From: a virus
Taxonomy: Duplodnaviria; Heunggongvirae; Uroviricota; Caudoviricetes
IMG/VR virus record: IMGVR_UViG_3300006226_001702
Coordinates: 11,064 to 75,063 of that record
DNA length: 64,000 nt
Direction: 5' to 3' (one strand)
In this document: positions 10,176 to 55,794 of the stretch, piece after piece
Numbering within the stretch: the stretch's first letter is position 1
How the letters are laid out: the number at the start of each line of letters is the position of its first letter
Program-made: the position numbers and the translations under genes
The notes under the pieces: generated by a model
The model's input: the letters and a program-made list of their open reading frames with translations, nothing else
What the model was told of the DNA's origin: nothing
The model's database searches: none

Positions 10176-12239
10176 ATGAATGTTTTATATGAAGCAAAAA
10201 TGGACGATTTCGTCACTTCTGGAATTACTAATAAGTCAATTCATAAAAAAGGTGTAGGAAGAAGCCGTTTAGTTAAAGCAATATTAAATTATCCAAACTC
10301 ATTACATATACTTTATGAGGTAGACTCTTCAGATGATGACAACGGTGCAAAACATTTCGCAGTAAATGGTCAGTCTCTATCATTTCTAAATAAAGGTTAT
10401 GCCTCACAGTTACATTTCACTGACATTCAAAATATAGTCCCGCCAAACTTTATGCAGTTACCTTACAGTCAGCAAGAACAAATCCTTCAACAAGTGTTTG
10501 ACCAAGCTGAAATGAAAGTTCAATGTGACTGCGGTTCATTCTACTGGCAGGGAATGTGGGAAAAAGACGCTGAAAAAGATAACACTTACTCTTCATTCAC
10601 TGGACAGCACGGAAAAGACATTTGGGCTGGCAGGCATAATGCAAGTGGCAATGTGCAAGGTCAACAATTATGTAAGCACTTGTGGTCAGTTGTTGAACAG
10701 ATAGAAGAAGACATCCCAGCCATTCTAAAGCTTATGGGTTCAAACACATCTTCTGCTTCTTCAACAGTTCAAGATGATGCACTCGAAGCACCTGAAAGTC
10801 CAGCTGGTGTTCCAGACGAAAGACCAAGATCAGAAGGTGGAATCAAATCAGTCAAAGCAGCCGATACAATATCTGCCGACATTAACGAGATCAAATCACG
10901 AGCTGAACAAAATGACTTGCCAACTATGGACTTATCTGCTGTTGAAAGTAAGCCTGTTGAAGGTGATGCTGATGTTGTGGAAGGTGCTGAAGATTATGAG
11001 CCACCAATTGAAGAGCCCAACAAGGCAGAAAACTTAGATGCAGATGCTACTGAAGATAAGATGTTAGAAGAGCCACTTGACACTAAAACGAAAAGTGATA
11101 TTGGTTTAGTTGAATCTTTTGAGAGGATCTATCAACAGTCATTGAGAGAAAAGAAAGACCACATCATAAACAAATTACCTCGTTTATCTAATACTGAAAA
11201 AGAAGAAGTCATCAACTTTTTTAAGAATCATTCTAACCTCGAAAACAAAATAGATTGGAATAACAAATCACTTACTATAAATGATTTTAGGCAGGTGATG
11301 AAATCTGTTGAAACTTCTCGTTCTGCTAAAAAGGCAGAAGTTAAAGCTGACTTAAGAGTTGCTTTTGATGATTATGTCAAAAATGGGGAAGCACACGTTT
11401 GGTTCGCCAATGACAAACTTATTTTAGTGTCACCATTAAGTTGGGCTTGTGCTCAATTTATGGATTCATATAACTGTTATGGTGAAGGCGCAAAATGGTG
11501 CATTGGAAAAGAAAATGACCCGCAACATTGGAATGATTATGTTTGTGAAAAAAGACAACAATTCATTATGTTATACGATGCTGTTGAAAAAACAAAGTTC
11601 ATGATTGAGCGTTCAAACGAAGAATACTATGACATTTGGGACGCGAAAGATAATCACATTTATGCTGAATCAAAAGGATTAGTTGATGCTGTTGAGCATC
11701 TTATTGGTGATAGAATAAATGAATTCCCAATACAAGAAATTGAAGCTGATGTAAATGAAGATATTGAAGAACTTTTTTATAATTGTGATTATGAAGAACA
11801 TGTAAATAACAGAGAAGAATTGGGTGAAGAATTAAATGAATATTACATAGAGGAACTTCTAAAAGGCAGAGGCGAAAGTGAATTAGAAAGTCCAATAAAC
11901 TTATTTCCAACTTTAATGTATGAAATTAGAAAAAGAGGTGAGGGAATAGCTGATGAAGATGAAAATGAATTAGCCGATGAAGTTCTAGTTAGTGTTACTA
12001 ATACAGTTATTGCAACATTTCACAATGAAGTTAGAGCAGGTAGGCCAGTTGATGATGAATGGATGGTTGACTTGTATGCTGCCGACAAAGTTGATGTTGA
12101 TGGTGAAATATCTGAAAAGGATAGAGAGACATCACGAGAAGCTTGGTACGATAAAAAACGAACACTCTTAATGGATAAAGAAAGATCTTATGGACAACAG
12201 TTCTTGTTTGAATCTATTTACAGGAAGAGCCATGAATAA
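10176..12239 (+). CDS. hypothetical protein with SWIM-type zinc finger and acidic regions
   Basis: CDCGSFYW...CKHLW (CxCxnCxH); long acidic stretches; contains SFERIYQQSLREKK motif. Confidence 0.5.
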   Translation: MNVLYEAKMDDFVTSGITNKSIHKKGVGRSRLVKAILNYPNSLHILYEVDSSDDDNGAKHFAVNGQSLSFLNKGYASQLHFTDIQNIVPPNFMQLPYSQQEQILQQVFDQAEMKVQCDCGSFYWQGMWEKDAEKDNTYSSFTGQHGKDIWAGRHNASGNVQGQQLCKHLWSVVEQIEEDIPAILKLMGSNTSSASSTVQDDALEAPESPAGVPDERPRSEGGIKSVKAADTISADINEIKSRAEQNDLPTMDLSAVESKPVEGDADVVEGAEDYEPPIEEPNKAENLDADATEDKMLEEPLDTKTKSDIGLVESFERIYQQSLREKKDHIINKLPRLSNTEKEEVINFFKNHSNLENKIDWNNKSLTINDFRQVMKSVETSRSAKKAEVKADLRVAFDDYVKNGEAHVWFANDKLILVSPLSWACAQFMDSYNCYGEGAKWCIGKENDPQHWNDYVCEKRQQFIMLYDAVEKTKFMIERSNEEYYDIWDAKDNHIYAESKGLVDAVEHLIGDRINEFPIQEIEADVNEDIEELFYNCDYEEHVNNREELGEELNEYYIEELLKGRGESELESPINLFPTLMYEIRKRGEGIADEDENELADEVLVSVTNTVIATFHNEVRAGRPVDDEWMVDLYAADKVDVDGEISEKDRETSREAWYDKKRTLLMDKERSYGQQFLFESIYRKSHE

Positions 12240-24661: not shown

Positions 24662-25036
24662 TTAGCAATCTCTTGTACCAGTTATAATCTCAATTGCAGG
24701 TGGATCATAACCAGTTATTTCCATTACCTTTTGAAGTGCTTCTGAACAACCAATGTCTTGTAGATCCGTATGGGTGAACTCTAAAAAGTCATCTCCTTCA
24801 GTAATGCATTCCCCCACGACATATAGATTATTTTCATAATCTTCCCAAACCCATATCTCATCATGAATCTTTTCTAAGAGTTCATAAAAATCAAAATCTT
24901 CATCATCAAATTCAATATTATTGTCTTTCGCATATTTCTTGAATTTGTCTAAATCATCACCTTTTCCAATTCTAAATCCTGCAACTACAAATGATGAAGT
25001 TGAACTATTGCTGACAAATCCATGTCTGATTTTCAT
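24662..25036 (-). CDS. MKIRxGFVSNSSSSSF-family protein (member 1, acidic)
   Basis: N-terminus MKIRHGFVSNSSTSSFVVAG, then divergent acidic body. Confidence 0.6.
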   Translation of the reverse strand: MKIRHGFVSNSSTSSFVVAGFRIGKGDDLDKFKKYAKDNNIEFDDEDFDFYELLEKIHDEIWVWEDYENNLYVVGECITEGDDFLEFTHTDLQDIGCSEALQKVMEITGYDPPAIEIITGTRDC

Positions 25037-27539: not shown

Positions 27540-28117
27540 TTTCTAGTCCTAAATTTTCCTAATGATGTTGTTTCTAATATTTCACATTGAACACTATCCA
27601 TTCTTTTTCCATATATGCTAACAATATCACCAACTTGAGCTCTTGCAATTTTTGACATTATTTCTTTAGTGGATTCTTGAAAACCTTCATAATCGTCATC
27701 ATCACCAAAAAGGTCACCCTCTTTAATGAGATTAGCAAAATCTAAAATGTTACCAGTAAACTCATAATCATCATCACCTAATTCTATCCAGTCGCCTTCA
27801 CGATACATTAAACTTGGTGGTAATAAACAATTTGGGTCCATAACTCTAATTCTTGCTTCAACATCTCTCATTCTTTGAGGTTTAGATTCTCTTAATGATT
27901 TCTGATAAACTTTTTCAAAGTCCATAGATTCTCCTAAATAGTCTTCACCAAACATTTCTCTACCTTTTGATACACCAGCTTTGAGATACTGTAAAACTCC
28001 AATAAGCTTCATTATATCATCATCAGATAAATCTGGGTCATCTAAAGCATTTTCAATTACATCAAGAGCATCATTTGAATCTTTTGCTAATTTGATATAC
28101 TCTTCTACTGATTTCAT
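27536..28117 (-). CDS. hypothetical acidic protein (MDFEKVYQKSLRE motif)
   Basis: 193-aa ORF, ATGA-coupled. Confidence 0.45.
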   Translation of the reverse strand: MKSVEEYIKLAKDSNDALDVIENALDDPDLSDDDIMKLIGVLQYLKAGVSKGREMFGEDYLGESMDFEKVYQKSLRESKPQRMRDVEARIRVMDPNCLLPPSLMYREGDWIELGDDDYEFTGNILDFANLIKEGDLFGDDDDYEGFQESTKEIMSKIARAQVGDIVSIYGKRMDSVQCEILETTSLGKFRTRK

Positions 28118-29487
28118 TATTTGTTAGCCTTATAGTCATCACATCTACATGGGTCATGTCCACAATCTTCACAATCTTTTCCAGTTGGCTTTTTAGCTTT
28201 TTTCTCTTTTTTGCCAGCTTTGTAATATTCTTCATATTCCTTACATCTACAAGGACTGTGTCCACAATTATCACATTCTTTACTTTCAGTAAGAGGTGCA
28301 GTTGCTACTTGATTGGCTGCCTGATTTGCAACTTTCGCTGCTTTTTTAGCTTCCTTAGCAGCTTCTTTTGCATTTTTTTCTGCAATTAAAGCAAATAATT
28401 TATCGCATGCTTCTTGCCTAGCAACTGGGTCTTTAATTAAACAGAATTGATGAGCTATTCCTTCGTAATCAATATTCTTACGAGGACCGCCTTCTCTTAA
28501 ACTATCATTATATATCTCATTAAAGTTTATGCTTTCATTATATTTTTGCTCATTATCAAAATTAGCTGCATATGTACATTTAATATTTGCACCTGGTCTA
28601 CCACCAATGTATCTTAAAGCTTTTTGTATTTTGTCTTTATTATCTGGGTCTTTTATGTTGCCTGCAAATTCTGGGCCTCTTGTGCTTCCATCAACAAAAA
28701 CTTGGAAAGTGTTTGCTCGCTTAACAGATGCCTTTTTCGGTATAATGTCTTCTTTTAATTGATTTTGATTTATGATTTTTTCTAAGAGTTTATCTTGTTT
28801 TTCAGTAAGTTTACCAACAATTTTTGCGCTGTCTTCACCCTCGCCTGTTGCCTTTGCAAGAAGTCCCAATGCTTTTGAAACTGATGCATCATCAACTGGA
28901 CTAAATGGTGCTGTTAAGTCTCTACCACCAGCCTTTGCTTTGAAAATTCCAAATTCATGAAGTTGTCTCTCACCTAATGGAGTTAAACCTTCTTCAGCAG
29001 CAGCTGCATCCATTTCTGACCAGTCTTCTTCGTCATCATCGTAATATTCAAATTCGGCTTCGTCATCTTCATCATCCCATTCAAAATCACCATCATGACC
29101 ACCAGTTGCAAAATACTCTTCTTCGTCTTCATCAGTTGGGTAATCTCCACCCATTTCATCGAAGTCATCATCGTCATCAAATGGGCCAATTCCTACACCA
29201 TTCTGTCTATCATCGTAAATTTCTGGATATAAGTCAGCATCAGATTCTTCATCATCTTCGTCATCACCATAACCACGATAAGACTGCTCACTCTCATAAG
29301 CTGCTCTTTGGTCTGGGTTCATCCATCCTATATCGCTTGCGTCATAAGACATTTCATCATCATCTTCAAATAATTCAGGTGCATCAAATTCTTTTGCTGC
29401 GGAAGGAACGTCATAAGTTTCTAACTCATCTTCGAAGGTCATATCGTCAAGGGCAGGATCCCAATCTTCTTTTAAAGGTTTCATCAT
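28117..29487 (-). CDS. highly acidic protein with two C-terminal CxxCGHxPCRC repeats
   Basis: N-terminal 170 aa very rich in D/E/Y; C-terminus CDNCGHSPCRC ... CEDCGHDPCRC. Confidence 0.5.
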   Translation of the reverse strand: MMKPLKEDWDPALDDMTFEDELETYDVPSAAKEFDAPELFEDDDEMSYDASDIGWMNPDQRAAYESEQSYRGYGDDEDDEESDADLYPEIYDDRQNGVGIGPFDDDDDFDEMGGDYPTDEDEEEYFATGGHDGDFEWDDEDDEAEFEYYDDDEEDWSEMDAAAAEEGLTPLGERQLHEFGIFKAKAGGRDLTAPFSPVDDASVSKALGLLAKATGEGEDSAKIVGKLTEKQDKLLEKIINQNQLKEDIIPKKASVKRANTFQVFVDGSTRGPEFAGNIKDPDNKDKIQKALRYIGGRPGANIKCTYAANFDNEQKYNESINFNEIYNDSLREGGPRKNIDYEGIAHQFCLIKDPVARQEACDKLFALIAEKNAKEAAKEAKKAAKVANQAANQVATAPLTESKECDNCGHSPCRCKEYEEYYKAGKKEKKAKKPTGKDCEDCGHDPCRCDDYKANK

Positions 29488-35813: not shown

Positions 35814-38800
35814 ATGAACTTTTTAAATGAGCTCGTTTCACTATCTAGAGATGAAATGGTCGATGAATATAATAAGACTAATAGAGATCCCATAGAAAAT
35901 GTTAAATTTGATAAAAGGGCAGCAAGTAGTTTTTCAGCCTCAAGAAAAGCTACTAGACATAAAATAACGGATAAACTCTTTCCAGATGGTTTTAATGAGT
36001 TTGATTTGCATAGTGCAGGAATTGCTATTCAAAGATTGATGAACACTGGGGAATTTGACCCAGATTACGATATAAAAGATGATATTGAAAAACTAACTGG
36101 CGCAGATAGAGACTTAATTAAAGCAGTTTTAGTCAAATCACAATATCATATTGATAAAGAAAACGTTAAGGGAAGTGTTGAACGAAATTATCCACATCTT
36201 GACATATCACAATTTGATGATATTTACGAAGTCTTTACTGATATAATTGGCCCAAACCATGGTGATACATCTTTATATGGAATTGAAGCCGAAATTGAAT
36301 TGTTGACTTGCATTGCTTTAAGAAAGATGGGATATCATACATCAAATGTTTATGACAACTTTTATTCAGAAGCTAGTGAGGCTCAAATTAAGGAGACTTT
36401 AATTAAAGTGGCTAAAGCATATTATCAAAGCAAACAGCATAAATTAGAAGAAAGTTTCAAACTTAGAATTCAGAACTTGAGGGAAGGTAAAACTTCCACA
36501 ATGCATTTAGAAGATTCAATAATTCGTGGTCCAGCGACTATGAATAAAATGATTGAATTTTTTAATTATCTCTATGGATTATTAGAAGGAACTTATACTG
36601 GAGATAATCCACCAATTTCACAAAAGATTGATGGTGGTCCAGTTATCTTTATGTGGTCGTCATTCCCAGGTCTTCCAGGCCCAGGATGTGCGGGCAAAGG
36701 ACTCCTTAATAAGACTCCAGTTCATTACACAACTCATGAACAAATAGATGCTGATGACAAACCACAAGGTTATAAAGACAAATTACATTACGTTTTGAAA
36801 TTAGCACAAGCTGTTAAAATCCCAGCAAATCAAGTTTGGATGGGCGACATGCTCTTCTCAAAAGGTGACGCCAAAACTTATGAGCAAGACGGTGAGAAAT
36901 TCGTTTATGTTAAGCCTGTAACTATTGCGTATGCAGCTCCATTTGATTCAGATATTGGTAAGAAGTTTTTGAATTGTGAAGTTGGAGCTGTTTTTCATAC
37001 GAGATTTAGAGATAACTTAACTAACAAGACTAATGATATTTCAATTTCAGAATTGGGAGATATTCCAGATTGGGCATTCGTTAAAGATGCTCAAATAAAT
37101 AACTTAAGTGGTAAGGTATCATTCAATAAGCAAGAATCCGCTTTCGTAAAACGTGAGATTGATAAACTTAAAAAGCTTGTAAACGAGCTAAACAATAATG
37201 AAGCATATCATGAGTTAACTAAAAATCAGAAGTTTATTGACTCATACGTTACAACATTACAGAATAATAAGATTGATAGACAAAGTAAAATTGACCCAAA
37301 TGAATTCGTAAATGAATTAGTGAGTTGGATTGGCACTAAAATGGATAATAATAGATCCAAATTGGATAGCCTCAAAACAGAAGCAGGCCGAATTAAAAAG
37401 GCAGCCTCATTAGATACGACTCAAAAAGAGTTAAATTATCTCGTAACTAACAATAAAGATGTAATTCAAAAAATAGCAACTTGTCTCAAACTTGCAACTG
37501 ACATTAAAGAGTACATGGTTGAAAAGATAAACGAAGCAGATGAATGGATATCTCAAATAGAAACTAAAGACGGTTTTTCTAAAACTGGTGGGGAAGGTTT
37601 TATCGCATCAGATGTTGATGGTGATTTCGTTAAGCTTGTAGACAGAGCAGCATTCACTTATTTTGCTCGCTCACCTGACATCATCAAAGGCGGGGCACAT
37701 TCAGCTTCTCGTGAAAACACTGAGAAGAAAACTGCGGTAGTAAACTTTGGCAGACTTAATCCTGTTTCAATTGGCCACAGAAAAATGGCAGAAGCAATTA
37801 GAGCTAAAGCAGATGAACTTGGTGGTGAAGCATTCATCTATCTTTCTCATTCATATGATGGTGTTGACTCTAAGAAGTTCAAGAAAGGAACAACTAAGAA
37901 TCCGCTCAAGTATGAAGACAAGATAACTTTCGTACAGGATGCTATTGGTGATATTGTAACAGTTGTAAATAGCAAAGCAGACCAAGCATTTGCTGTTTAT
38001 GGTGAACTCTATCGAAAAGGATTTACTGACCTCGTTATAATTGCTGGTGAAGATAGAATTGAAGTCTTTGAAAGAGATGCTCAGAACCACAATGGAAAGT
38101 ATGATGCTGAACCAATGAGATGTTTTGATTTTGATAGCATTAAAGCGGTGAATGCTGGTGTTAGAGATGAAGATAGTGATGATGAAGCTGAGCAGGCAAG
38201 TGCATCATTGTTACGTAGAGCTGTTAGTGATAATGATTTTGAAACTTTTGAGAAGTTTGTTGGTGCAAAGTCATATGCTCAAGAAATGTTTGATCTTCTT
38301 AAGTATGAGATGGGTTTATCTGAAAAATTAAAAGAAAATGAAGAACTAACAATAGATGAACTCATAAATAGATTAGACAATGAAGATAATAATATTGAAA
38401 TAGAAATCGATGTGAATCCTGATCCAAATGAAGAAACAAATTTTAATATAATAGAAGAACCTGAAAATAAAAATGAAGTAAATGATTCTACTGAAAATAG
38501 AGAAAGTTCTCCAGAGGAAATTAGTAGTGAAATAAATTCAGCAATTGATTCCTATATGAATGAATCAATAAATATTTTTAATAAAATATTTTATAAAAGT
38601 TTAAAAGAAGAGACAAAAAGAGGAAAAACTTATACAGTAAAAGGTAAAGAAAATATAAAGAAAGTTTTATTTAATATAAAGAAAAGACACAAAGATTTAA
38701 CTTTTTATAATGCAAAGCATCTTGGTGGCGGTAAGTGGGAAATAAAAACATCATATGCTAAGAGTAGATCAAACTTAAGTAATCGTGAGATTGAATGGAA

Positions 38801-40409
38801 TGATTTTGATATTGAGGAAGAAGCTATTTCTGAAAAACAAATAAAAGGAAGCTTATTAAATAAAATAGCTTTATATTTAGAAAATAAAATAAATTATAAA
38901 GACACACCCGAGAAAGAATATATAAGATTTAGTTTTAAAATTAGCCCAAAAGGTTCAGGACAATTAAAAATCGGATTTAATTTTAAAGGAAGTGGTAATA
39001 AAGCTTTAATTGGAAATAGAATAAATAAAGATAAAATAAAAGATCTAATTGATGAAATTAATATCTCACAAGATAACGAAAAAGTTATTTGTACTGGTAA
39101 TATAACAAATTTTATTGTTTATCAAAAAGGTGATACTCAAATTGATTTTAAATATCATCCATCAGACCAAGCTATAAATGAATCAGGGGCTTCAAAAATA
39201 GTAAATGAAACTGATATTCAAGAAGCTTTATTTGCTTATATTTTAAGTAGATATAATGAAGTAAGAAGTGGTAAATTGAATATTGAAAATATTTTAAATT
39301 TTAATAATTTTGATAATATTTTAATAGATCATTTTAATTCTGAAGAAGAATTTAATAATTTCTTTGCACCAAAATCAACAACTGGTAAAGAATTTAGTCA
39401 ATATGGTACTGACGGTAAAAATTGGGTGTTCTTTTTCAATACATTAATTAATGAAATAAAAAGTGATGAATTTTTGAATAAAATAAAAGATTGCTATAAT
39501 AATAAAATAAAAAATCAAATAGATTTAAATCAATATAAAGTTTATCATCCTAATTTAAAAAACTCTGAAAATCAAAAACATGATTTTTTAATTAGACAAT
39601 TTGGTGCTACTCAAGGATCATTTTTTAAAGATACTATTAATCCAACAGATGTAATTTTGTATAAAGATTTAAAAGAATTTGATTTATTATATAAAAGTTT
39701 TGATAATGTCGATGAATATAAAAAAAATTGGAATAAACATATAGAAAATTTAAATATTATAGGATTATCATTAAAGAAAAATACGAAAAGTAATTTAAAA
39801 ATATATAGAACAAATCCTGAACCAATAGGCACGAGTAAAGCATTTGATGAGAAAAGATTAGTTTGTTTTAGATTTAATAATGAAAATCCAGAGGTTTGTA
39901 CAGTAAAAATAAATGAAAAAACTATAAATAAAAATTATAGTTTGATGAGAAATAAAAATGATATTCCTACAGGAATTATGATTGAAATACCTGTTGATGA
40001 AAAACATATTCATATGAATGCAATAGGCTTAACATTTAGAAGTTCTTTAGGAAATGACAAATTAAAACCTGGTATTAAAGTAGGTCTTGATTTTAGACAA
40101 AAAGGTGGTAGTCCTGAGGCACAATTAGGAAGAGCTTCTGATTCTTTAGAATATCTATTTAAAAATAATAGAAAAGCTTATGATGAGTGTTCTACACTAA
40201 TATCAGTAGATGATAATGGTTGGAATAATATTAAAAATAATTTTATAAAAAATTTATCATTATTAGGAGATAAAAATTTAAAATTAAACATCACAAAACT
40301 TTTAGCTTTTGGATGTAAATATGCAATTTTATTTGTTGATAGCAATGGAAATATAGATAAAAATAGACCAAGTGAATCACTTGCTGTTGATTATATAAAA
40401 ATATCATAA
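35814..40409 (+). CDS. giant multidomain protein: Rnl1-like RNA ligase domain + HxGH nucleotidyltransferase domain + Asn/Lys/Ile-rich low-complexity C-terminal half
   Basis: Motif I KIDGG; motif IV/V EGFIASDVDGDFVKLVDR (cf. T4 Rnl1 EGYVAVMKDGSHFKIKSDW); GRLNPVSIGH = (T/H)xGH adenylyl/cytidylyltransferase signature; sharp composition shift near 38330. Confidence 0.5.
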   Translation: MNFLNELVSLSRDEMVDEYNKTNRDPIENVKFDKRAASSFSASRKATRHKITDKLFPDGFNEFDLHSAGIAIQRLMNTGEFDPDYDIKDDIEKLTGADRDLIKAVLVKSQYHIDKENVKGSVERNYPHLDISQFDDIYEVFTDIIGPNHGDTSLYGIEAEIELLTCIALRKMGYHTSNVYDNFYSEASEAQIKETLIKVAKAYYQSKQHKLEESFKLRIQNLREGKTSTMHLEDSIIRGPATMNKMIEFFNYLYGLLEGTYTGDNPPISQKIDGGPVIFMWSSFPGLPGPGCAGKGLLNKTPVHYTTHEQIDADDKPQGYKDKLHYVLKLAQAVKIPANQVWMGDMLFSKGDAKTYEQDGEKFVYVKPVTIAYAAPFDSDIGKKFLNCEVGAVFHTRFRDNLTNKTNDISISELGDIPDWAFVKDAQINNLSGKVSFNKQESAFVKREIDKLKKLVNELNNNEAYHELTKNQKFIDSYVTTLQNNKIDRQSKIDPNEFVNELVSWIGTKMDNNRSKLDSLKTEAGRIKKAASLDTTQKELNYLVTNNKDVIQKIATCLKLATDIKEYMVEKINEADEWISQIETKDGFSKTGGEGFIASDVDGDFVKLVDRAAFTYFARSPDIIKGGAHSASRENTEKKTAVVNFGRLNPVSIGHRKMAEAIRAKADELGGEAFIYLSHSYDGVDSKKFKKGTTKNPLKYEDKITFVQDAIGDIVTVVNSKADQAFAVYGELYRKGFTDLVIIAGEDRIEVFERDAQNHNGKYDAEPMRCFDFDSIKAVNAGVRDEDSDDEAEQASASLLRRAVSDNDFETFEKFVGAKSYAQEMFDLLKYEMGLSEKLKENEELTIDELINRLDNEDNNIEIEIDVNPDPNEETNFNIIEEPENKNEVNDSTENRESSPEEISSEINSAIDSYMNESINIFNKIFYKSLKEETKRGKTYTVKGKENIKKVLFNIKKRHKDLTFYNAKHLGGGKWEIKTSYAKSRSNLSNREIEWNDFDIEEEAISEKQIKGSLLNKIALYLENKINYKDTPEKEYIRFSFKISPKGSGQLKIGFNFKGSGNKALIGNRINKDKIKDLIDEINISQDNEKVICTGNITNFIVYQKGDTQIDFKYHPSDQAINESGASKIVNETDIQEALFAYILSRYNEVRSGKLNIENILNFNNFDNILIDHFNSEEEFNNFFAPKSTTGKEFSQYGTDGKNWVFFFNTLINEIKSDEFLNKIKDCYNNKIKNQIDLNQYKVYHPNLKNSENQKHDFLIRQFGATQGSFFKDTINPTDVILYKDLKEFDLLYKSFDNVDEYKKNWNKHIENLNIIGLSLKKNTKSNLKIYRTNPEPIGTSKAFDEKRLVCFRFNNENPEVCTVKINEKTINKNYSLMRNKNDIPTGIMIEIPVDEKHIHMNAIGLTFRSSLGNDKLKPGIKVGLDFRQKGGSPEAQLGRASDSLEYLFKNNRKAYDECSTLISVDDNGWNNIKNNFIKNLSLLGDKNLKLNITKLLAFGCKYAILFVDSNGNIDKNRPSESLAVDYIKIS

Positions 40410-47704: not shown

Positions 47705-48292
47705 TTAGTCCACAATTATTTGGTTCAAATCATCGAACTTAATTGTGATTACCTTTTTAGCACAAAGATAATCAGCATATGCAACAATATAGTGCTCGGG
47801 TTTAGTGGGTGGCTTGCCTAACTCTTTTCCATTCTTATCAGTGTGCCAACGACTCATGTGCGTGTCAACTATATCGGCTATCAATGGCCAATAAATAGAA
47901 TCAGCAAACTTGCTTCTAATAGCATCACCCATCATAATAGCATGTTCATTGTGAATGTACTTCTGATCTTTTTCAGTGTACTTTTTCATATCGTGAAGAA
48001 GAGCACCAATGTAAATGATGTCCCATTCTATGTCATTGTCATACTTTGGGTCTTGCTGTAACATTAGTTCAGTCAATTTACAAACGGCTCTCGTGTGTCT
48101 TAAAAGACCACCCACCCCGTTTGACCAAGGTGGGTGATATTTCCCGCTGCTACTTGCCGGCGCATCACAAATGTAATCAGAACATTCCATTAGAAGTGCT
48201 TTACAATCGATGCGTAGATATTCTGTTTTGATTTTTTCAATTTCAGTCTTAAAACAGTTTAGTATTCTTCTTCCCATAAGTCTGGATGGCAA
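47705..48292 (-). CDS. HD-domain phosphohydrolase (paralog B), candidate RNA 3'-end healing enzyme
   Basis: SSSGKYHPPWS...LLRHTRAV...ALLHDMKKY; paralogous to 35175..35786. Confidence 0.65.
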   Translation of the reverse strand: MPSRLMGRRILNCFKTEIEKIKTEYLRIDCKALLMECSDYICDAPASSSGKYHPPWSNGVGGLLRHTRAVCKLTELMLQQDPKYDNDIEWDIIYIGALLHDMKKYTEKDQKYIHNEHAIMMGDAIRSKFADSIYWPLIADIVDTHMSRWHTDKNGKELGKPPTKPEHYIVAYADYLCAKKVITIKFDDLNQIIVD

Positions 48293-48591
48293 CCAATTGG
48301 TCCGTCATTTGTAGATAATTCTTGATCTTCAAATGGGAAGACACCATTTCTTGCCGCTATCTCCTTCTCGCTTCTCAACTTCATCCAAGTTGGTTTTGGT
48401 GCAATCACTTTGAAACAACATATTGGTACGTTGTTCAAATGGAGATATTCAGCTGCTGCTCTATAATCCTCAGGAAAACGAGATACATATATTTGATAGT
48501 TCAACCTAACGTCTTCTGAGAAATAAAAATATACAATTTCATCTGCGTATTCTAGGTAAACAGACTCTTCATTAAGTCGTTCTATAATCAT
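48259..48591 (-). CDS. hypothetical protein
   Basis: 110-aa ORF within the RNA-repair operon. Confidence 0.4.
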   Translation of the reverse strand: MIIERLNEESVYLEYADEIVYFYFSEDVRLNYQIYVSRFPEDYRAAAEYLHLNNVPICCFKVIAPKPTWMKLRSEKEIAARNGVFPFEDQELSTNDGPIGCHPDLWEEEY

Positions 48592-48618
48592 TTTAGGCTC
48601 CTATTCATTTAGTTCAAT

Positions 48619-49131
48619 TTACCTATTTACGTTAATGAAATCAATCAGCTTTTCTATATCTCCATCATATTTATGATACACCAAATCACTATTTTCAATT
48701 CTATCAATACAGTTGTGATATTTAATGAACTTATTCTCGATGATACTATCAGTCAAAGCTGATCTATCCTTTCCCTTTTCTAAATCAGTTGCTACGCGCT
48801 TCTGACAAAGCTTCAAATCTTTACTGTCTTCCATTAAGATGAAAATGACTTTACATGGAAAAATCGCTTTGTATCTAACGAGATTCTTAAACGATATATT
48901 CATCGCATTAAAGTACACTGTCTTATCATCGATGATAGCATCTAAAGCTCTTTCCTCAGCAATCTTGAATATCTTATGTCCGTCACGCTGTTCATTCACA
49001 TCACCGAAAACTTCTCTTCTAATATCGTCTGGTTCTATATTAACGAGATCGTCTAATCGTTTTTCCAACTGCTCTTTTAAGTGGCTTTTCCCACTACCAG
49101 GAATTCCCACAGTCATAACTACTAATGCCAT
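48619..49131 (-). CDS. polynucleotide 5'-kinase (T4 Pnk kinase-domain-like P-loop protein)
   Basis: MTVGIPGSGKSHL...IEPDDIRREV parallels the T4 Pnk N-terminus LTIGCPGSGKST...NINRDDYRQS; no DxDGT phosphatase domain. Confidence 0.6.
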   Translation of the reverse strand: MALVVMTVGIPGSGKSHLKEQLEKRLDDLVNIEPDDIRREVFGDVNEQRDGHKIFKIAEERALDAIIDDKTVYFNAMNISFKNLVRYKAIFPCKVIFILMEDSKDLKLCQKRVATDLEKGKDRSALTDSIIENKFIKYHNCIDRIENSDLVYHKYDGDIEKLIDFINVNR

Positions 49132-49799
49132 TTATCTACTCCACTAACATATACTTCGTTCTTTTCCCATTTTTTAGTCCAATGCTCATCCGTTTGAACA
49201 TGATTAGCTCTAACGTACTTAGCGATATTTTCATCCCAATCAGCTTCAAGAAACTCATCGGCATTTCTTAACACATAACCTTCATGATGCTCTTCATTAA
49301 ATGCATCTTTCCAAACTCTTTCAGGCAAACCTCTTGGCATTGCGCTATTTAGAATAACAGGCACAGTTTCCAAATTAAGCAATTCACACCATTCCATCGT
49401 TTCTTCCCAAGATAGAACGCCAAACTTATCCGTAATCATAAACACTTGAAATAGCGGAACATGAGAATATCTAATCGAATGACAGGCATACAAGTTTTCA
49501 CCAATGATTCTCATTTCAGGTGGAATGTTACAGAACAATTTTCTCGCTATGTAATTGATGTCCCGTCTCCATTTGGCTGATTGATCACTGTCTAAACTTC
49601 GAGCATGAACGTAATCATAACCAATTACAGTGCATTCTCCATCCATTTTTTCAGTCATTAGAATTGGCCCAGAAGGACAGAAGATGTCATTCTTTCTATC
49701 ATCTTTAGTCAATCCCTTCGAGTTCGGTAAGTGTCCAATGCGAGGAAACTTACGCTTGTACTTTAGTGCTATCTCCGAGGAAGTTTCCGTCTTCATCAA
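49122..49799 (-). CDS. ATP-dependent RNA ligase (Rnl2/Rnl5-like adenylyltransferase domain)
   Basis: Motif I TEKMDGE (KxDG) and motif IV HHEGYVLR. Confidence 0.6.
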   Translation of the reverse strand: MMKTETSSEIALKYKRKFPRIGHLPNSKGLTKDDRKNDIFCPSGPILMTEKMDGECTVIGYDYVHARSLDSDQSAKWRRDINYIARKLFCNIPPEMRIIGENLYACHSIRYSHVPLFQVFMITDKFGVLSWEETMEWCELLNLETVPVILNSAMPRGLPERVWKDAFNEEHHEGYVLRNADEFLEADWDENIAKYVRANHVQTDEHWTKKWEKNEVYVSGVDKWH

Positions 49800-50478
49800 A
49801 CTTTTCAGGATTATCCCACCTGCTCCAATATAAGTCTACATATTTTCCATCATCATCTTGTAAATCGTATGAATAGTCCATGCGATGATCCACTTCTAAT
49901 TCGTCGGCATCACCATACTCATCAGAACGATTTGCAACATAATTTCCTTCACCAAATAACCAATGGAAAATTGAGTCATTGTCTTCAAAAATCATCCAGT
50001 AATTATCAGTTCTATCAAACCACTGTGACTGATGATCGATATGCCCGCTCATTTTGGCCTTATTCATTGAATAGTTTTCTTCAGTTAAAAGCCAATTGAT
50101 GTTAGTCACATTTGGAATGTTGTCTTTAATCACAGTTTCAAGCATCAATACTTCATCAACATCTCTGTCATAAATCTTTCTAACATCATCACTCATATTC
50201 TTAACGAAGTCTTTATGAAAATCAGCAGCTTTATTTATCCTAACTCTTTGAAGTCTTTCCGCTAAAAGCCAAGCAAAGTTTAGTCGGCTACCGAAGTCTT
50301 TGTAGTTTTCTCGCTGCCTACCAAAATCAACCTCACCACCAAATGTGAAAGGCACATATAAAGTGCTTGGGTCTTTATACATCTTTGGCATGTGAGGAAT
50401 TACATAAATACCTTCTCCACCAAAAACGAGAAACGAACTACTTGAACTGTTACTAACGAAACCTGCTCTAACTTTCAT
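49750..50478 (-). CDS. MKIRxGFVSNSSSSSF-family protein (member 4, 242 aa)
   Basis: MKVRAGFVSNSSSSSFLVFG; body homologous to member 3 over the TFGG..F...Y..F..RLN segment; acidic C-terminus. Confidence 0.6.
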   Translation of the reverse strand: MKVRAGFVSNSSSSSFLVFGGEGIYVIPHMPKMYKDPSTLYVPFTFGGEVDFGRQRENYKDFGSRLNFAWLLAERLQRVRINKAADFHKDFVKNMSDDVRKIYDRDVDEVLMLETVIKDNIPNVTNINWLLTEENYSMNKAKMSGHIDHQSQWFDRTDNYWMIFEDNDSIFHWLFGEGNYVANRSDEYGDADELEVDHRMDYSYDLQDDDGKYVDLYWSRWDNPEKFDEDGNFLGDSTKVQA

Positions 50479-50479
50479 C

Positions 50480-50722
50480 TTAATCTCCTATATAAGAAAA
50501 TCGGCTAACCCATTCTCCATTAACATTTACTTTTTCAGTCCACATTTCAATTGGACGAGCCCAAATTTGTCCACCTTCAGACTGATATATGACTAACCAG
50601 TCATCAGTTTCCGTGTGTCGTGCTGTATGAATGGCTGTGTAAATGCCACCCTTATAATGTTTATACTTGCCCATTTTCAGCATTTTTAGCCTCCTCATAT
50701 TGTTCGGCCGAAGTGTACACAT
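50480..50722 (-). CDS. DUF1653-like small protein
   Basis: KYKHYKGGIYTAIHTARHTETDDWLVIYQSEGGQIWARPIEMW pattern; true start probably MGKYKHYK. Confidence 0.45.
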   Translation of the reverse strand: MCTLRPNNMRRLKMLKMGKYKHYKGGIYTAIHTARHTETDDWLVIYQSEGGQIWARPIEMWTEKVNVNGEWVSRFSYIGD

Positions 50723-50848
50723 TTACTTCTAAGCCAGTTTTACCACAGACGTTCTCACTGAGAAAATCACACATCACACCTTCTAAATGTCCCCAAGACT
50801 TTCCATTTTCAAAGCAGGGCTCTTTACAACCACACAGCATAAATTCTC

Positions 50849-51157
50849 CTAATCAAATAATTCTCCATTTTCAGAATCAACATATTCACTAAATTGGTCA
50901 CCCTTAAAATGAATAGTCATTCTATCTTTTTGACGCTGAAACATTTCAATCATCTCTTCAAAAGATGATGTCACATTTTGTACTCTAATTTGCCAATAGT
51001 AGTCTGGTTTGTATCTCACTTGAATGTCAGCATTCTTTTTGTCGGCAAAAGCATTTGCATCCTCTCTAGTCAAGAACACATGAAAATGCTCAGGCTTAAC
51101 GCCAAATCCTGCTTCACATTCAAAATCAATTGCAACGACATACATAATCAATTCCAA
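50849..51157 (-). CDS. hypothetical protein
   Basis: 102-aa ORF. Confidence 0.4.
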   Translation of the reverse strand: MELIMYVVAIDFECEAGFGVKPEHFHVFLTREDANAFADKKNADIQVRYKPDYYWQIRVQNVTSSFEEMIEMFQRQKDRMTIHFKGDQFSEYVDSENGELFD

Positions 51158-51567
51158 AATTTGATTTCAATATTCTTGTCTTTGAACTCTTTTGGCATAG
51201 CAGTTCTCAATGCGCCTTCAATTCTGCCGCCACCATCACCACCATCTTTAATCGTAACTTCATGCACAAACTTCCAGTTGTCAAAGAATGGCTTCCAAAT
51301 TGCTTCGCATTCCTCAGTTAGTCCTTCACTCCACCAGTTGTTCTTGACATGAACTAAAAAGCTATTCCAATCAGGCCAAGTGTTGTGGTCCTCAAGTTCA
51401 TAAACGGCGTATCGTCTAAGCTCTCTGATGAGCATACGAGCCGCACCATGTGCTGGAAAGATCTCTTCCCAGTTGTCTTCAATCGTTTGCTCAAATGAGC
51501 TACAATTTGAACCAACTATAAACGAGCTGCTTGAACTGTTACTAACAAAACTTGTCCTAATCTTCAT
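51148..51567 (-). CDS. MKIRxGFVSNSSSSSF-family protein (member 5)
   Basis: Start set at MKIRTSFVSNSSSSSFIVG; stop of the upstream member lies 2 nt before this ATG. Confidence 0.6.
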   Translation of the reverse strand: MKIRTSFVSNSSSSSFIVGSNCSSFEQTIEDNWEEIFPAHGAARMLIRELRRYAVYELEDHNTWPDWNSFLVHVKNNWWSEGLTEECEAIWKPFFDNWKFVHEVTIKDGGDGGGRIEGALRTAMPKEFKDKNIEIKFWN

Positions 51568-51568
51568 T

Positions 51569-51952
51569 TTAGCCTTCCTCAATACCCATAAACAATTTGA
51601 TGGGCCATTTCTTCTTAATCAACTTAATTGCCGGAGTTTCAGCTTGTAATTGGCTGATAAACTCTTTTGGGTCAATTTCACTAACTTCATCAAATCCATA
51701 GAATCCTTTCAAGCTAATGTTTTCCCCAACGTAAACTGAATCACCATCAGGTGCCACCTCACATGATATATAAGATAATTCACCCTCATCAGCAAATGCA
51801 ATCATATCATAGAGATCAATATCGTCTAATTCTTCATCTTCTTTTAACTGGTAATCTATCAATTCGGCAAAGTCCGCCTTAGTGATATGCGCACCAAGAA
51901 TTAGAAAAGAGCTTGAAGAACTGTTACTAACGAATCCATTTCTAATTTTCAT
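51569..51952 (-). CDS. MKIRxGFVSNSSSSSF-family protein (member 6)
   Basis: MKIRNGFVSNSSSSSFLILG; ATG overlaps the upstream stop (TGATG). Confidence 0.6.
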   Translation of the reverse strand: MKIRNGFVSNSSSSSFLILGAHITKADFAELIDYQLKEDEELDDIDLYDMIAFADEGELSYISCEVAPDGDSVYVGENISLKGFYGFDEVSEIDPKEFISQLQAETPAIKLIKKKWPIKLFMGIEEG

Positions 51953-52359
51953 CAATATCCTCCTTCTTGTTTTAACACGAGTTCATGATCAGAATAATGA
52001 ATGTCCGAGTTACATAGGATGTAATCTTCTGGTTCTCCGCCATCATCTGAAAAACTACAGAATCTAACTGTAAAGCCTTTGTCAAGAAGATCTAAAATCT
52101 CCTCATCACCATCATCCCAATCTTCATAAGAATCATATCCTTCATATTCAGCATAATCATCTCTCGTCTTTATTTCATCTTCATTTCTAATAGTGTCATA
52201 AATATGTTTTGAAAAATCGGGAAGCTTAATCGGGTAATCTTTCGGCCATTCACCAAATATTTTCTTAATCTTTTGTTCCAAATCTTTCCCATGAATTCTA
52301 TGAGCAACTAAAAATGAGCTACTACTTGAATTACTGACAAATCCGCTTCTTATCTTCAT
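51952..52359 (-). CDS. MKIRxGFVSNSSSSSF-family protein (member 7)
   Basis: MKIRSGFVSNSSSSSFLVAH, acidic body. Confidence 0.6.
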   Translation of the reverse strand: MKIRSGFVSNSSSSSFLVAHRIHGKDLEQKIKKIFGEWPKDYPIKLPDFSKHIYDTIRNEDEIKTRDDYAEYEGYDSYEDWDDGDEEILDLLDKGFTVRFCSFSDDGGEPEDYILCNSDIHYSDHELVLKQEGGY

Positions 52360-52364
52360 ATTTA

Positions 52365-52652
52365 TTACCCATCATACCATGCATTACTGAGAATGCTTGG
52401 ATTACTTTCTATCCCAAGCTCATCGAAGAGCTTTTTAGCTCTTTCAGAAAACTGATTTTTAGTTTCATCTCCACCCATTTTGGAGATGTCTAAACCAATA
52501 TAAACGCCATCCATTTCTGGTGGTGAATAAATGTCAAGACCTAATTTATAAGCCTTGCTTTCGAGTTCTTCATTAAACTCTTCTAACCATTCACCCATTA
52601 TGCAGAATGAACATGAAGAGCTATTACTAACGAATCCGCTTCTTATTTTCAT
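52365..52652 (-). CDS. MKIRxGFVSNSSSSSF-family protein (member 8)
   Basis: MKIRSGFVSNSSSCSFCIMG; ATG overlaps the stop of the membrane-protein gene (TAATG). Confidence 0.6.
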   Translation of the reverse strand: MKIRSGFVSNSSSCSFCIMGEWLEEFNEELESKAYKLGLDIYSPPEMDGVYIGLDISKMGGDETKNQFSERAKKLFDELGIESNPSILSNAWYDG

Positions 52653-53152
52653 TATCGTCTCCTCTCAGCATCTCGTAAACGCTGCTCTAATTCGGCCCTA
52701 CTTAACTCTTCAATTGGCCTTTCAGCTATAGGCCTCGTCATTACTTCAAGTCCGGAAGCCAATCTGTTTATATATTCTGGTAGATTAACTGCTGTGTTGA
52801 CTATACCTTTGATAGTTGAATCTAACGCTGTCAATGCAATATCAGGATTGTAGACACTCTCTGGATTTCTCTCAGCATAATCATCCAACACTATCGCTAC
52901 TTGTCTTGCCACAACTACTTCCTCTTTCAAATGAGGTATGTTGTAAACTGATATACAGAAGATACATAGTAAAGTCAAAAATATTGAACTTGAAACTGGA
53001 AAAAGCTTCTTGTAATTTTGATAAGTGCTCGTTCCATAACCAATACGAATCCATAAGATAATTGACCCGATAGCAGCTACCCATCCAACTGCAGTTATGG
53101 CGATGCGGAGCATCCCGATAGTAATGATAGTTTCAATAAGTTGACTATACAT
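52652..53152 (-). CDS. membrane protein (2-3 TM helices)
   Basis: Hydrophobic N-terminal half (IITIGMLRIAITAVGWVAAIGSIILWI; VSSSIFLTLLCIFCISV), charged C-terminus. Confidence 0.5.
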   Translation of the reverse strand: MYSQLIETIITIGMLRIAITAVGWVAAIGSIILWIRIGYGTSTYQNYKKLFPVSSSIFLTLLCIFCISVYNIPHLKEEVVVARQVAIVLDDYAERNPESVYNPDIALTALDSTIKGIVNTAVNLPEYINRLASGLEVMTRPIAERPIEELSRAELEQRLRDAERRR

Positions 53153-53161
53153 TATTTCCTC

Positions 53162-53251
53162 CTACTTAATTTTTAAGCATCTCAATATAATTCCCGCTAT
53201 CATTCCAGCACAGAATATCAAGATGCAAACTGTAATAAACACACCACTCAT
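53162..53251 (-). CDS. very small hydrophobic peptide
   Basis: 29 aa, MSGVFITVCILIFCAGMIAGIILRCLKIK, with GGAGA RBS at 6-nt spacing. Confidence 0.25.
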   Translation of the reverse strand: MSGVFITVCILIFCAGMIAGIILRCLKIK

Positions 53252-53420
53252 AAATGTCTCCACATATATCCTAATCCATAAGCACAAAGGCAAAGGATCA
53301 TATAAATTACTGCGAGCCACATTAGTTACCCCCGTTGCCTAACCCAATACAGAATGCGACAATACAAGCTAATATAAACAAAATGAAAATCACCATCCAA
53401 TGCATGGGCTCTCCAATTCA

Positions 53421-54647
53421 CTATACTTCGTATTCCGGGCAGCTTCTTTTTGATTCACGCAGTTTCATTCTCCATAATTCTAATCCAAAATCCCAATGAT
53501 GTTTGAAACGAACAGGCTTGTCTTTGAAATCTTCCAATGATTCACCGTTGATAACATCAAATTTGTAGCAAGGTTTCTCATTAAAGCTACAGGGATAAAA
53601 GTTTCCGTTAACATCTACATAAGAACTGAATAACCCGCTTTCACATGGTTCAATCATCTGAATCAATTCTTTCAGTCTTTCTTCTTGCATTTCGATATAA
53701 GCATTTCTGGCAAAGCTTCCACCATCTCTATCTGGGTCAGAATCTTTTTCCCATCTTTTGCCAATCTTTTCTGACACATCATCTCGTGCCCAAGCTTCAA
53801 AACGATTTGCACTACAGGAATCAAATCCAAAACCAATTGAGTTTGACATAAATAGATTAACGAGATTAGAAAAGTGTTCATCACTAAGCCGGTTGAATCC
53901 CTTTTCAGCTCGACCGCACTTTTTGAGCCCGAGCAAGACGACTGCATTTAGTCCTTCAAATCGAGCATCAGTCTTAATCATTTCGACTAACTTAAGACAT
54001 TCCTCATAAGTTTCTTCGGATATCATAAAGTGAATGTTTATTTGTTGTAGCGTTTTCTTTATGAGATAAAAGGGGGATGAATCATCCCTTTCAGTTTTAA
54101 GTTTGTTAAGCAAATCCACAGTGTCAGCAAGCACTTCAAAATCAGAATGGTAGCTTATTGCAACCCCACCAAAGTTCTGGACTATCTTAACTGCATTTGC
54201 CATAGTGAGTTGTGCAACTGTTCCATTTGGTATGATGTGATTTTCTCTGAGGTAGTCACACATTGCCCACAAGTCTGGGTTGGCTTCTGCTGTGCTGTCT
54301 AAACCAAAAGCAACTTGAGTTAGTTGCTGATTAAAGTTGACTTCATCTATCACCTTTTTGAAAGTTTCAAGAGACATATTAGTTCCCTTGGGTGTGTTTG
54401 ACTTGTAGCAGTAAGCGCAGAGTTTTCCATCAATTCCGTTGCACTTAGTTGTGACTTCAATGTCGAGGATCTCTGGCCCATAAATTGACATCTCTGGGTC
54501 ATCTTCTTCTTTTTCTCCCCAGCGAGCAAAATAGCCATTCTTTAAGTTGAAGTCATAGTTGTAGTTTTTTGACCTAAAACATTTTCTGCTTCCTTCAAGA
54601 AAGACAGTGTAATCAGTTGCTCTTTTTAAGAAATTCATTTCCGCCAT
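53421..54647 (-). CDS. radical SAM enzyme with C-terminal SPASM/twitch-like Cys-rich domain (non-canonical Cx7CxxC)
   Basis: ILDIEVTTKCNGIDGKLCAYCYK resembles the radical-SAM cluster loop (canonical CxxxCxxC with a 4-residue insertion); C-terminal CGRAEKG...DSCSANRF...EPCESG...VDVNGNFYPCSF...PCYKF includes the SPASM-type GxxxPC motif. Confidence 0.55.
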   Translation of the reverse strand: MAEMNFLKRATDYTVFLEGSRKCFRSKNYNYDFNLKNGYFARWGEKEEDDPEMSIYGPEILDIEVTTKCNGIDGKLCAYCYKSNTPKGTNMSLETFKKVIDEVNFNQQLTQVAFGLDSTAEANPDLWAMCDYLRENHIIPNGTVAQLTMANAVKIVQNFGGVAISYHSDFEVLADTVDLLNKLKTERDDSSPFYLIKKTLQQINIHFMISEETYEECLKLVEMIKTDARFEGLNAVVLLGLKKCGRAEKGFNRLSDEHFSNLVNLFMSNSIGFGFDSCSANRFEAWARDDVSEKIGKRWEKDSDPDRDGGSFARNAYIEMQEERLKELIQMIEPCESGLFSSYVDVNGNFYPCSFNEKPCYKFDVINGESLEDFKDKPVRFKHHWDFGLELWRMKLRESKRSCPEYEV

Positions 54648-54856: not shown

Positions 54857-54994
54857 TTTGTTTCCTCATGTATAATATAAGACGGTATGCGCAAGCTTTC
54901 CAGTACAACGTGTGTGGCCGCTTGCAAAAATTTAGAAGGGAAATGATTTGATGATTCATATTCCATAATTCTCCCTAAAATTATGTTTTTGTAG

Positions 54995-55067
54995 CTCCCC
55001 AGGGAGGGTTCGAACCTCCATCAGCAGAGTCAAAGTCTGCTGTGATAACCAATTTCACTACCGGGGA
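54995..55067 (-). tRNA. tRNA-Gln (anticodon UUG)
   Basis: Acceptor TCCCCGG/CTGGGGA, D-stem GTGA/TCAC, anticodon stem GCAGA/TCTGC with loop CTTTGAC, T-arm GGAGG-TTCGAAC-CCTCC; 73 nt. Confidence 0.8.
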
Positions 55068-55696: not shown

Positions 55697-55721
55697 ATTT
55701 TAGCTCCCTTAAAAGTGATAG

Positions 55722-55794
55722 TCGGGAATCCCGGACTCGAACCGGGGACATCTTGGTCCCAAACCAAGCGGTATAGCCACTAACCTAATTCCCG
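55722..55794 (-). tRNA. tRNA-Pro (anticodon UGG)
   Basis: Acceptor CGGGAAT/ATTCCCG, anticodon stem CTTGG/CCAAG with loop TTTGGGA, T-arm CCCGG-TTCGAGT-CCGGG; 73 nt. Confidence 0.8.

Follow-up and report, generated by a model that had tools for sequence, protein, structure and literature searches.

A phage radical SAM/SPASM-type enzyme paired with proteins that share an N-terminal tag: a putative protein-modification system

Radical S-adenosylmethionine (SAM) maturases with leader-tagged substrates are already known from peptides that are synthesized ribosomally and modified post-translationally (RiPPs) and from the anaerobic sulfatase-maturating enzymes (anSMEs) and their sulfatases. The radical SAM systems of RiPPs act on a short precursor, composed of a leader and a core that is modified, and usually include a RiPP recognition element (RRE) and a leader protease or exporter. 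Here we analyze a stretch of 64,000 nt (the window; positions 11,064 to 75,063 of IMG/VR record IMGVR_UViG_3300006226_001702) from a 183-kb metagenomic phage contig that encodes DNA polymerase, ligase, exonuclease, a tail protein and three tRNAs. The window contains a gene for a radical SAM enzyme of 408 aa and, on the same strand, eight genes for proteins (the putative clients) that open with nearly the same 16 residues (the tag). From the co-occurrence of both components in hundreds of phages and in bacteria, we infer, with a probability of about 0.6, that the tag is what the enzyme binds and acts on. With respect to the known maturases, this system is unusual in its folded clients of many families, the universal N-terminal tag, the phage arrays and the link to STAND immunity. 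No published description of the motif, the family or the pairing was found in the searchable literature, including that on phage radical SAM systems, and functional annotation of the enzyme or of the tag family is absent from Pfam, NCBIfam, PHROGs and PADLOC.

The system resembles the anSMEs in its radical SAM enzyme with a SPASM-type C-terminus, in the putative substrates, which are folded full-length proteins with a short N-proximal Ser/Cys motif, and in having one enzyme for many client proteins; additionally, the best structural match of the window enzyme is anSMEcpe. However, the sequence relation is negligible (13.5 bits with the anSME model TIGR03942, far from its equivalog cut-off of 349) and the template modeling (TM) score of the structural match is only 0.43-0.50. 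The window enzyme has four auxiliary cysteines, versus about eight in the anSMEs, plus an extra N-terminal beta domain, whereas the tag is situated at the extreme N-terminus, does not contain the C/S-x-P-x-R motif, and precedes proteins that are not sulfatases.

Among the radical SAM maturases of RiPPs, the comparison included those of sactipeptides, ranthipeptides, streptide and RaS-RiPPs, and the epipeptide enzyme EpeE/YydG. As in these systems, a conserved N-terminal leader is followed by a variable rest, the precursor genes are arrayed and co-transcribed with a single radical SAM/SPASM gene, and EpeE and PqqE are among the top fold matches of the window enzyme. In contrast to RiPP precursors, the clients are folded proteins of 51-390 aa (median 132 aa) and not short peptides, and it is the leader alone that is conserved, being the likely reaction site instead of a disposable recognition handle. 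Also unlike RiPP loci, clustering of the open reading frames (ORFs) of the loci described below identified no RRE, protease or exporter conserved nearby, and the present system is predominantly phage-encoded.

The enzyme and the tag

A sequence-only reading of the window, made without database searches, had proposed that the 408-aa product is a radical SAM/SPASM enzyme. Profile and structure searches bear this out: the fold, the cluster cysteines and the SPASM signature, as CX12GX4C, are all present. In an alignment of 64 homologs, the three cysteines of C69-x7-C77-x2-C80 are invariant, and so are C278, C335 and C353, whereas C403 and G348 are at least 90% conserved; the arrangement C335-x12-G348-x4-C353 fits the SPASM signature CX9-15GX4C. 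The first spacer of the cluster motif ranges from 3 to about 9 residues in the family, with the canonical CX3CX2C occurring in some members, and the CX7CX2C of the window enzyme (residues 69-77) would thus be a lineage-specific insertion. The second SPASM motif, CX2CX5CX3C, to which a full SPASM domain owes its two auxiliary clusters, is incomplete, with C403 as the only cysteine left in the window clade (R-x-C-P), suggesting a single auxiliary cluster, twitch-like; bacterial homologs and the enzyme of phage GAP161 retain more of this motif.

The AlphaFold2 model of the enzyme has a predicted local distance difference test value of 94.6 and shows a five-strand beta domain (residues 4-43) before the barrel. 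This domain, being all-beta, is unlike the winged-helix RRE, although no RRE-specific models were applied. A Foldseek search against the PDB returned as top matches only radical SAM enzymes, with a probability of 1.00, anSMEcpe with bound peptide ranking first (4k38, E 2e-7) and followed by EpeE, RlmN, DesII, BlsE, BtrN and PqqE, while a sequence search against the PDB gave nothing meaningful. The enzyme matches phrog_7293 (function not annotated) with an E-value of 1.7e-77, and produces weak matches to several peptide/protein radical SAM maturases in NCBIfam; neither the window enzyme nor its clients have a match in PADLOC. Its homologs in metagenomes number at least 1,472. These results place it among the SPASM/twitch radical SAM enzymes, outside all named families. 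The public gene call begins at Met4, giving a product of 405 aa instead of the 408 aa of the ORF considered here.

Four tandem minus-strand ORFs with a common N-terminus had been described in the window, and the ORF list contains them all, with the positions and N-termini proposed; neighboring ORFs either overlap by 1 nt or are 1-5 nt apart. The family is nevertheless larger, since a six-frame motif scan found eight genes, and not four, that open with MK[IV]RxGFVSNSS[ST]SSF, all of them on the minus strand: a fifth one is just downstream of the array and the other three lie ca. 20 kb from it. Residues M1, K2, R4, F7, V8, S9, N10, S11, S12, S15 and F16 are constant in the eight tags and, judging from these sequences, eight copies of M-K-x-R-x-x-F-V-S-N-S-S-x-x-S-F cannot have arisen by chance. 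The eight 5′ ends diverge at synonymous sites, including switches between AGY and TCN serine codons, indicating selection on the peptide and not on a DNA or RNA element. This synonymous divergence rules out a nucleotide-level repeat or recombination cassette as the source of the conservation of the tag. The sequence-only reading had also called the remaining sequences (the bodies) unrelated and often strongly acidic; the latter holds, with isoelectric points (pI) of 4.05-4.96 for the bodies, but the former does not apply to all of them, since the 95-aa and 127-aa clients belong to one body family and the 242-aa and 168-aa clients have motifs in common.

Conservation of the tag extends well beyond the window. 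Across 240 distinct tag proteins, F7, S15 and F16 are present in 99%, 98% and 95% of the sequences, respectively, and S9, N10, S11 and S12 in 100%, these four positions being fixed by the search pattern. The bodies have a median pI of 4.5, with 80% of them below 5. A profile dominated by the tag matched 14,786 cluster representatives (50% identity clusters), and of the best 150 of these representatives nearly all are matched from residue 1 onwards; there is no Pfam entry for the tag family. In a client family recurrent in 21 loci (e.g. L011, L018, L021, L025, L026 and L048), the residues right behind the tag form a CxxC(G) motif (...SSSFxCxxCG), suggestive of a zinc ribbon joined directly to the tag. 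Some database proteins (P0365, P0367, P0369, P0372 and P0400) contain two complete tags each, the second opening at an internal Met; they look like pairs of adjacent tag genes merged into a single ORF, either because a stop codon was lost or recoded or as an artefact of gene calling.

The AlphaFold2 model of a client shows a well-folded body preceded by ca. 10 residues of low confidence. This model bears on an alternative in which the tag proteins are a single, highly diverged paralog family, whose N-terminal strand and Ser-rich loop would be structural or ligand-binding and only indirectly linked to the enzyme. Residues 13-23 are indeed placed in the central sheet, and some bodies have further motifs in common. 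However, the most conserved residues, 1-12, are those with the lowest model confidence, the bodies form at least 10 clusters without detectable similarity and with products spanning the full 51-390 aa range, and the pairing with the enzyme would be left unaccounted for. We consider this alternative very improbable, the least probable of those weighed here.

Pairing of enzyme and tag in phages and bacteria

The tag family and the radical SAM gene occur together, in the same orientation, in very diverse phages and in bacteria. The search with the enzyme alignment yielded 81 diverse viral contigs (enzyme identity of 33-62%, sizes of about 7-461 kb); the regions of ±10 kb around these hits, together with that from the contig of the window, constitute a set of 82 loci. 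In about 69 of these 82 loci, tag genes lie within 10 kb of the enzyme gene, at 1-13 per locus. Every tag gene (273/273) is on the strand of the enzyme, 238 of them are downstream, and the first one directly follows the enzyme gene in many loci. Clustering of the ORFs over these loci showed that, besides the enzyme and an antisense ORF artefact situated inside its gene, only tag-bearing families occur in more than about 12 loci, at least 10 of them with unrelated bodies; there was no conserved second enzyme, membrane protein, protease or transporter. Conversely, among short stored blocks picked by the DNA pattern of the tag alone, the enzyme was present in 45 of the 116 viral ones and in 44 of the 93 from genomes. 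Additionally, at their few variable positions, tags from proteins with unrelated bodies are more alike within a locus (0.76) than between loci (0.66), a difference not reached in any of 300 label permutations; for instance, T6 is found in all eight tags of L079, and MKTRT opens all five tags of L012. Such homogeneity within a genome is as expected if all its tags must fit one partner.

The region has no nucleotide similarity to GenBank or cultured phages. Likewise, a tblastn search of GenBank phages with three tag proteins from the window and metagenomes produced no match; the tag is masked as low-complexity sequence by the filter, and cultured phages do not have these bodies. With a tag protein from a T4-like contig, matches were obtained. 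In GenBank phages, the enzyme and the tag protein are found in 173 and 175 records, respectively, from the same T4-like genera and with near-equal counts for Klebsiella (110/115), Enterobacter (20/20), Cronobacter (14/14), Citrobacter (11/11) and Escherichia (9/9). In one of these phages, GAP161, the enzyme (GAP161_155) and tag genes are 20 kb apart. Both components are thus available in cultured phages, namely the RB43/RB16/GAP161 and KP15-like phages of Klebsiella, Cronobacter, Enterobacter and E. coli, which makes the system directly testable. Trypsin would free the tag of GAP161-type proteins as one convenient peptide (SGFVSNSSSSSF...; SGFVSNSSSSSFI...). In T4-like enterobacterial phages, two tag genes flank a gene for a 748-aa protein (L099 2640-4886; GAP161_109), with a DxSGS motif in its N-terminus that looks like the MIDAS (metal ion-dependent adhesion) site of von Willebrand factor A domains.

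The pattern of pairing also weighs on the possibility that the tag is a sorting signal, read by other machinery for virion packaging, secretion or proteolysis, with the radical SAM gene as merely a neighbor in the region. In the internal-protein locus of T4, small proteins that differ from one another but open with a common signal are arrayed. Those hypervariable small proteins of a large phage, with their short conserved N-terminal sequence, offer a parallel, and the predicted flexibility of the first ca. 10 residues of the client would also suit a signal. The T4-type capsid-targeting sequence comprises ca. 10 N-terminal residues that end in an L/I-x-E site for the prohead protease, and is confined to T4-like virions. 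Nevertheless, this site is missing from the tag, which contains no Glu in positions 1-18, and the tag is found in bacterial operons and in many phage types; a capsid-targeting sequence of the T4 type was rejected on these grounds. A sorting signal of any kind is further opposed by the pairing itself, which holds from contigs of about 7 kb to jumbo-phage contigs of 461 kb, in unrelated phage types, and also in bacterial STAND operons, which have no capsid. Moreover, the enzyme is the sole conserved neighbor, and enzyme and tag protein are found in the same GenBank phage genera in spite of their separation of 20 kb. The sorting signal is thus improbable in our view, if slightly less so than a purely structural strand.

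The tag pattern is rare in 185,579 species genomes, with 93 blocks; most of these are contigs from metagenome-assembled genomes, and we suspect them to be phage-derived. The bacterial form consists of a single tag protein of ca. 135 aa encoded directly upstream of a homologous radical SAM enzyme with a full SPASM domain. It is carried by isolates of Veillonella parvula, Acetatifactor muris and Lachnobacterium bovis, and by Verrucomicrobia, Sulfuricurvum and Agrobacterium pAt, the carrier groups being Firmicutes, Verrucomicrobia, Campylobacterota and Agrobacterium. Its tag reads MKI[RGK]xGFVTNSSSTSF, or MKLKMDFVSNSSSTSF. The genes are ordered as STAND NTPase, a protein of ca. 130 aa, the tag protein and the radical SAM/SPASM enzyme, an operon that was observed across phyla (e.g. 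L219 2423-8000, L203 1987-7997 and L297 3583-8035). The NTPase matches Avs2 in PADLOC (1.2e-17) and has a variable N-terminal effector, either a trypsin-like protease or SMEK; in some loci, a protein with a metallo-beta-lactamase fold, similar to Avs1a/LmuA, is situated ahead of it. The bacterial enzyme produced only weak viperin-like hits in PADLOC.

In the KpAvs2 operon, which is the nearest system in the literature, the radical SAM protein Avap1 is needed for defense against T2, and the small protein Avap2, which is DUF6375-like by HHpred, binds Avs2 (Bechon et al., 2024; PMC11564622). The bacterial relatives described here also pair an Avs2-like STAND protein with two small proteins and a radical SAM enzyme; in contrast, the window has an expanded client array in place of a STAND gene, none being found among its ORFs examined. 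Neither the tag proteins nor their neighbors of ca. 130 aa matched PF19902 (DUF6375) with HMMER at E<=10, whereas the published call for Avap2 was made by HHpred; the identification of either protein as Avap2/DUF6375 is therefore without HMMER support. The bacterial operon may be related to KpAvs2-Avap1-Avap2, compared by description, which we take as a lead and not as a finding. The Ophion radical SAM defense system (bioRxiv 10.1101/2025.09.30.679545) was discarded as a relative, since it has another architecture (radical SAM, PHP and PRTase) with an unrelated organization.

A putative modification within the tag

The sequence-only reading had proposed a radical SAM/SPASM maturase acting on multiple substrates recognized through their leader, and this idea gains support from the fold of the enzyme, its co-oriented co-occurrence with tag genes and the lack of any other conserved partner. 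We propose a two-component protein-modification module in which the enzyme would recognize the tag, M-K-[IVT]-R-x-G-F-V-S-N-S-S-S-S-S-F, that opens each client. The enzyme would have a single [4Fe-4S] cluster that cleaves SAM and, in its reduced SPASM domain, probably a single auxiliary one, besides its family-specific N-terminal beta domain. Since the tag is the sole segment common to the clients, the reaction site is probably within it, and the radical chemistry would take place there, with the invariant polar residues S9, N10, S11, S12 and S15 as candidates. The tag would work as a portable module, placed before small, acidic, folded proteins of many unrelated families, and enzyme and clients would be co-transcribed. 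Three candidate chemistries have equal standing: serine oxidation of the anSME type, considered because of the likeness to anSME and to radical SAM dehydrogenases; an ether or C-C crosslink; and epimerization.

The phage would use the modified proteins in infection, most plausibly as effectors for host takeover or anti-defense, and the same pair of enzyme and tag would be an accessory cassette of bacterial Avs2-like STAND immune operons. This biological role is suggested by the context, namely the acidity of the clients, an accessory region by genes for an RNA ligase, a kinase and an HD protein, and the bacterial immune operons.

Several observations weigh against this proposal. Its support is co-occurrence, which does not prove a relation of enzyme and substrate, and about 13 of the 82 enzyme loci have no tag gene within 10 kb; these include T4-like enterobacterial loci with tag genes (GAP161_111 and GAP161_106) at a distance of ca. 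20 kb. The scores of the window enzyme do not reach the gathering cut-offs of either Pfam Radical_SAM (PF04055; 20.7 bits, cut-off 29.5) or SPASM (PF13186; 17.9 bits, cut-off 21.5); PF04055 is passed by bacterial homologs (57.3 and 52.1 bits) and is carried by several metagenomic homologs. The tag does not contain the known motifs of protein substrates of radical SAM enzymes, be it C/S-x-P-x-R (C/S-x-P/A-x-R for the anSMEs), of which the Pro and Arg required in the anSME register are missing, or a conserved Cys for thioethers. Finally, part of the conservation could be structural, since the fold is predicted to begin with a beta-strand made up of residues 13-23 of the tag region.

The main rival to a modification of the tag is that the tag, unmodified, docks the clients on the N-terminal beta domain of the enzyme, with the bodies acting as adaptors that bring other targets (host or phage proteins, nucleic acids or metabolites) to the radical SAM active site. 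Docking accounts for the same co-occurrence, co-orientation and homogeneity of the tags within a genome, for the presence of one tag on many unrelated bodies and for the conservation of the extra N-terminal domain, and in the KpAvs2 operon a small accessory protein does bind a larger partner (PMC11564622). However, similar SPASM/twitch enzymes are known to act directly on the peptide that they bind, and the invariant polar side chains of Ser and Asn suit a reaction site better than a docking strand. To our knowledge, adaptor-directed radical SAM enzymes have no precedent. We therefore regard docking as unlikely, although clearly ahead of the sorting-signal and structural alternatives discussed above, which fit the evidence poorly.

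A glycyl-radical enzyme with its activase was also considered. The glycyl-radical motif forms a C-terminal glycine loop, and the activases do not have a SPASM domain. In the tag, R4-x-G6-F7 is in another register than the R-V-x-G-[FWY] motif and is N-terminal, and G6 is replaced genome-wide in some phages, by T in all 8 tags of L079 and by F or Y in L046. This candidate was rejected on the register, the N-terminal site, the replacement of G6 and the SPASM signature of the enzyme.

If the enzyme does modify the tag, this would be a new radical SAM modification on whole folded proteins, involving thousands of phage proteins and up to 13 per locus, and would provide a functional handle on much of the dark matter of phages. 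A role would also suggest itself for the radical SAM accessory protein in immune operons of the Avs2 type, and a short, genetically portable tag would become available for enzymatic protein modification. More tentatively, and as something that we see as possible but doubtful, the family of ca. 15,000 clusters would be defined only by a 16-residue tag that is given a new modification by its dedicated radical SAM enzyme and that phages would place on dozens of unrelated effectors. The module would have a common ancestry with the radical SAM accessory cassette of Avs2-type STAND operons, and the phage arrays would be modified mimics, inhibitors or decoys against that branch of immunity; or else the bacterial cassette would be phage-captured.

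Gene content of the window

The enzyme, the eight tag genes and the ORFs between the enzyme and the array are listed in Table 1. The body family common to the 95-aa and 127-aa clients is present in 38 related loci, and that of the 242-aa client carries FGGE..FGRQRENY.DFGSRLNFA. A match of the 135-aa client to phrog_7397 covers residues 1-37 only.

Table 1. Coordinates of the enzyme gene, the tag genes and the intervening ORFs in the window
Feature	Position	Strand	Evidence or remarks
Radical SAM enzyme, 408 aa, putative tag-modifying maturase	53421..54647	-	Hidden Markov models, Cys pattern, AlphaFold2, Foldseek
Tiny hydrophobic ORFs	53162-53320, 53322-53405	-	Co-oriented with the array
Membrane-like ORF, 166 aa, context only	52652..53152	-	No family hits (Pfam, PHROGs, NCBIfam)
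Tag-bearing client protein, 95 aa, MKIRSGFVSNSSSCSF...	52365..52652	-	Commonest body family, YIG..S...DETG.QFK
Tag-bearing client protein, 135 aa	51952..52359	-	Separate body family, 18 related loci
Tag-bearing client protein, 127 aa	51569..51952	-	Same body cluster as the 95-aa member
Tag-bearing client protein, 139 aa, MKIRTSFVSNSSSSSF...	51148..51567	-	Body family in 4 related loci
Tag-bearing client protein, 242 aa, MKVRAGFVSNSSSSSF...	49750..50478	-	Body family in 9 loci
Distant tag-bearing client protein, 168 aa	30913..31419	-	Related to the 242-aa body
Distant tag-bearing client protein, 119 aa	30402..30761	-	Motif scan
Distant tag-bearing client protein, 124 aa, MKIRHGFVSNSSTSSF...	24662..25036	-	Motif scan

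As had been described, the array is preceded upstream by co-oriented ORFs, namely the membrane-like one of 166 aa, the two tiny hydrophobic ones and that of 408 aa. Among the 82 radical SAM loci, the 166-aa ORF is common only to the window and its closest relative (L005). The membrane protein and the two tiny peptides were rejected as parts of the system because they are lineage-specific and not conserved across loci, and the 166-aa ORF is probably outside it. Between the fifth tag gene and the four in tandem there are three small ORFs, also on the minus strand, at 50480-50722 (DUF1653), 50661-50840 (ca. 59 aa) and 50849-51157 (ca. 102 aa), which are common to the closest relative only, or to none. 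Scanning the region for promoters and terminators gave nothing informative.

Directly downstream of the tag array there is an RNA-repair-like trio of genes (window 47705-49799, minus strand), coding for an RNA ligase (49122-49799; PF09414, and phrog RNA ligase with 1.6e-42), a polynucleotide-kinase-like AAA_33 protein (48619-49131) and an HD phosphohydrolase (about 47705-48277). The trio resembles the Pnk/Rnl counter-defense of T4 against anticodon nucleases. Of the tRNA genes, Gln-TTG (54994-55067) and Pro-TGG (55721-55794) are just upstream of the radical SAM gene, and Gly-TCC (2477-2549) is far away. Between two of the distant tag genes, a 456-aa protein (28117-29487, minus strand) contains very long Asp/Glu-rich stretches and two C-terminal CxxCGHxPCRC repeats; the scans made did not assign it to a family. 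A 1531-aa ORF (35814-40409, plus strand) covers the part of the window richest in AT, especially at 38000-40000, a stretch with a GC content of 0.246 and strong positive GC and AT skew.

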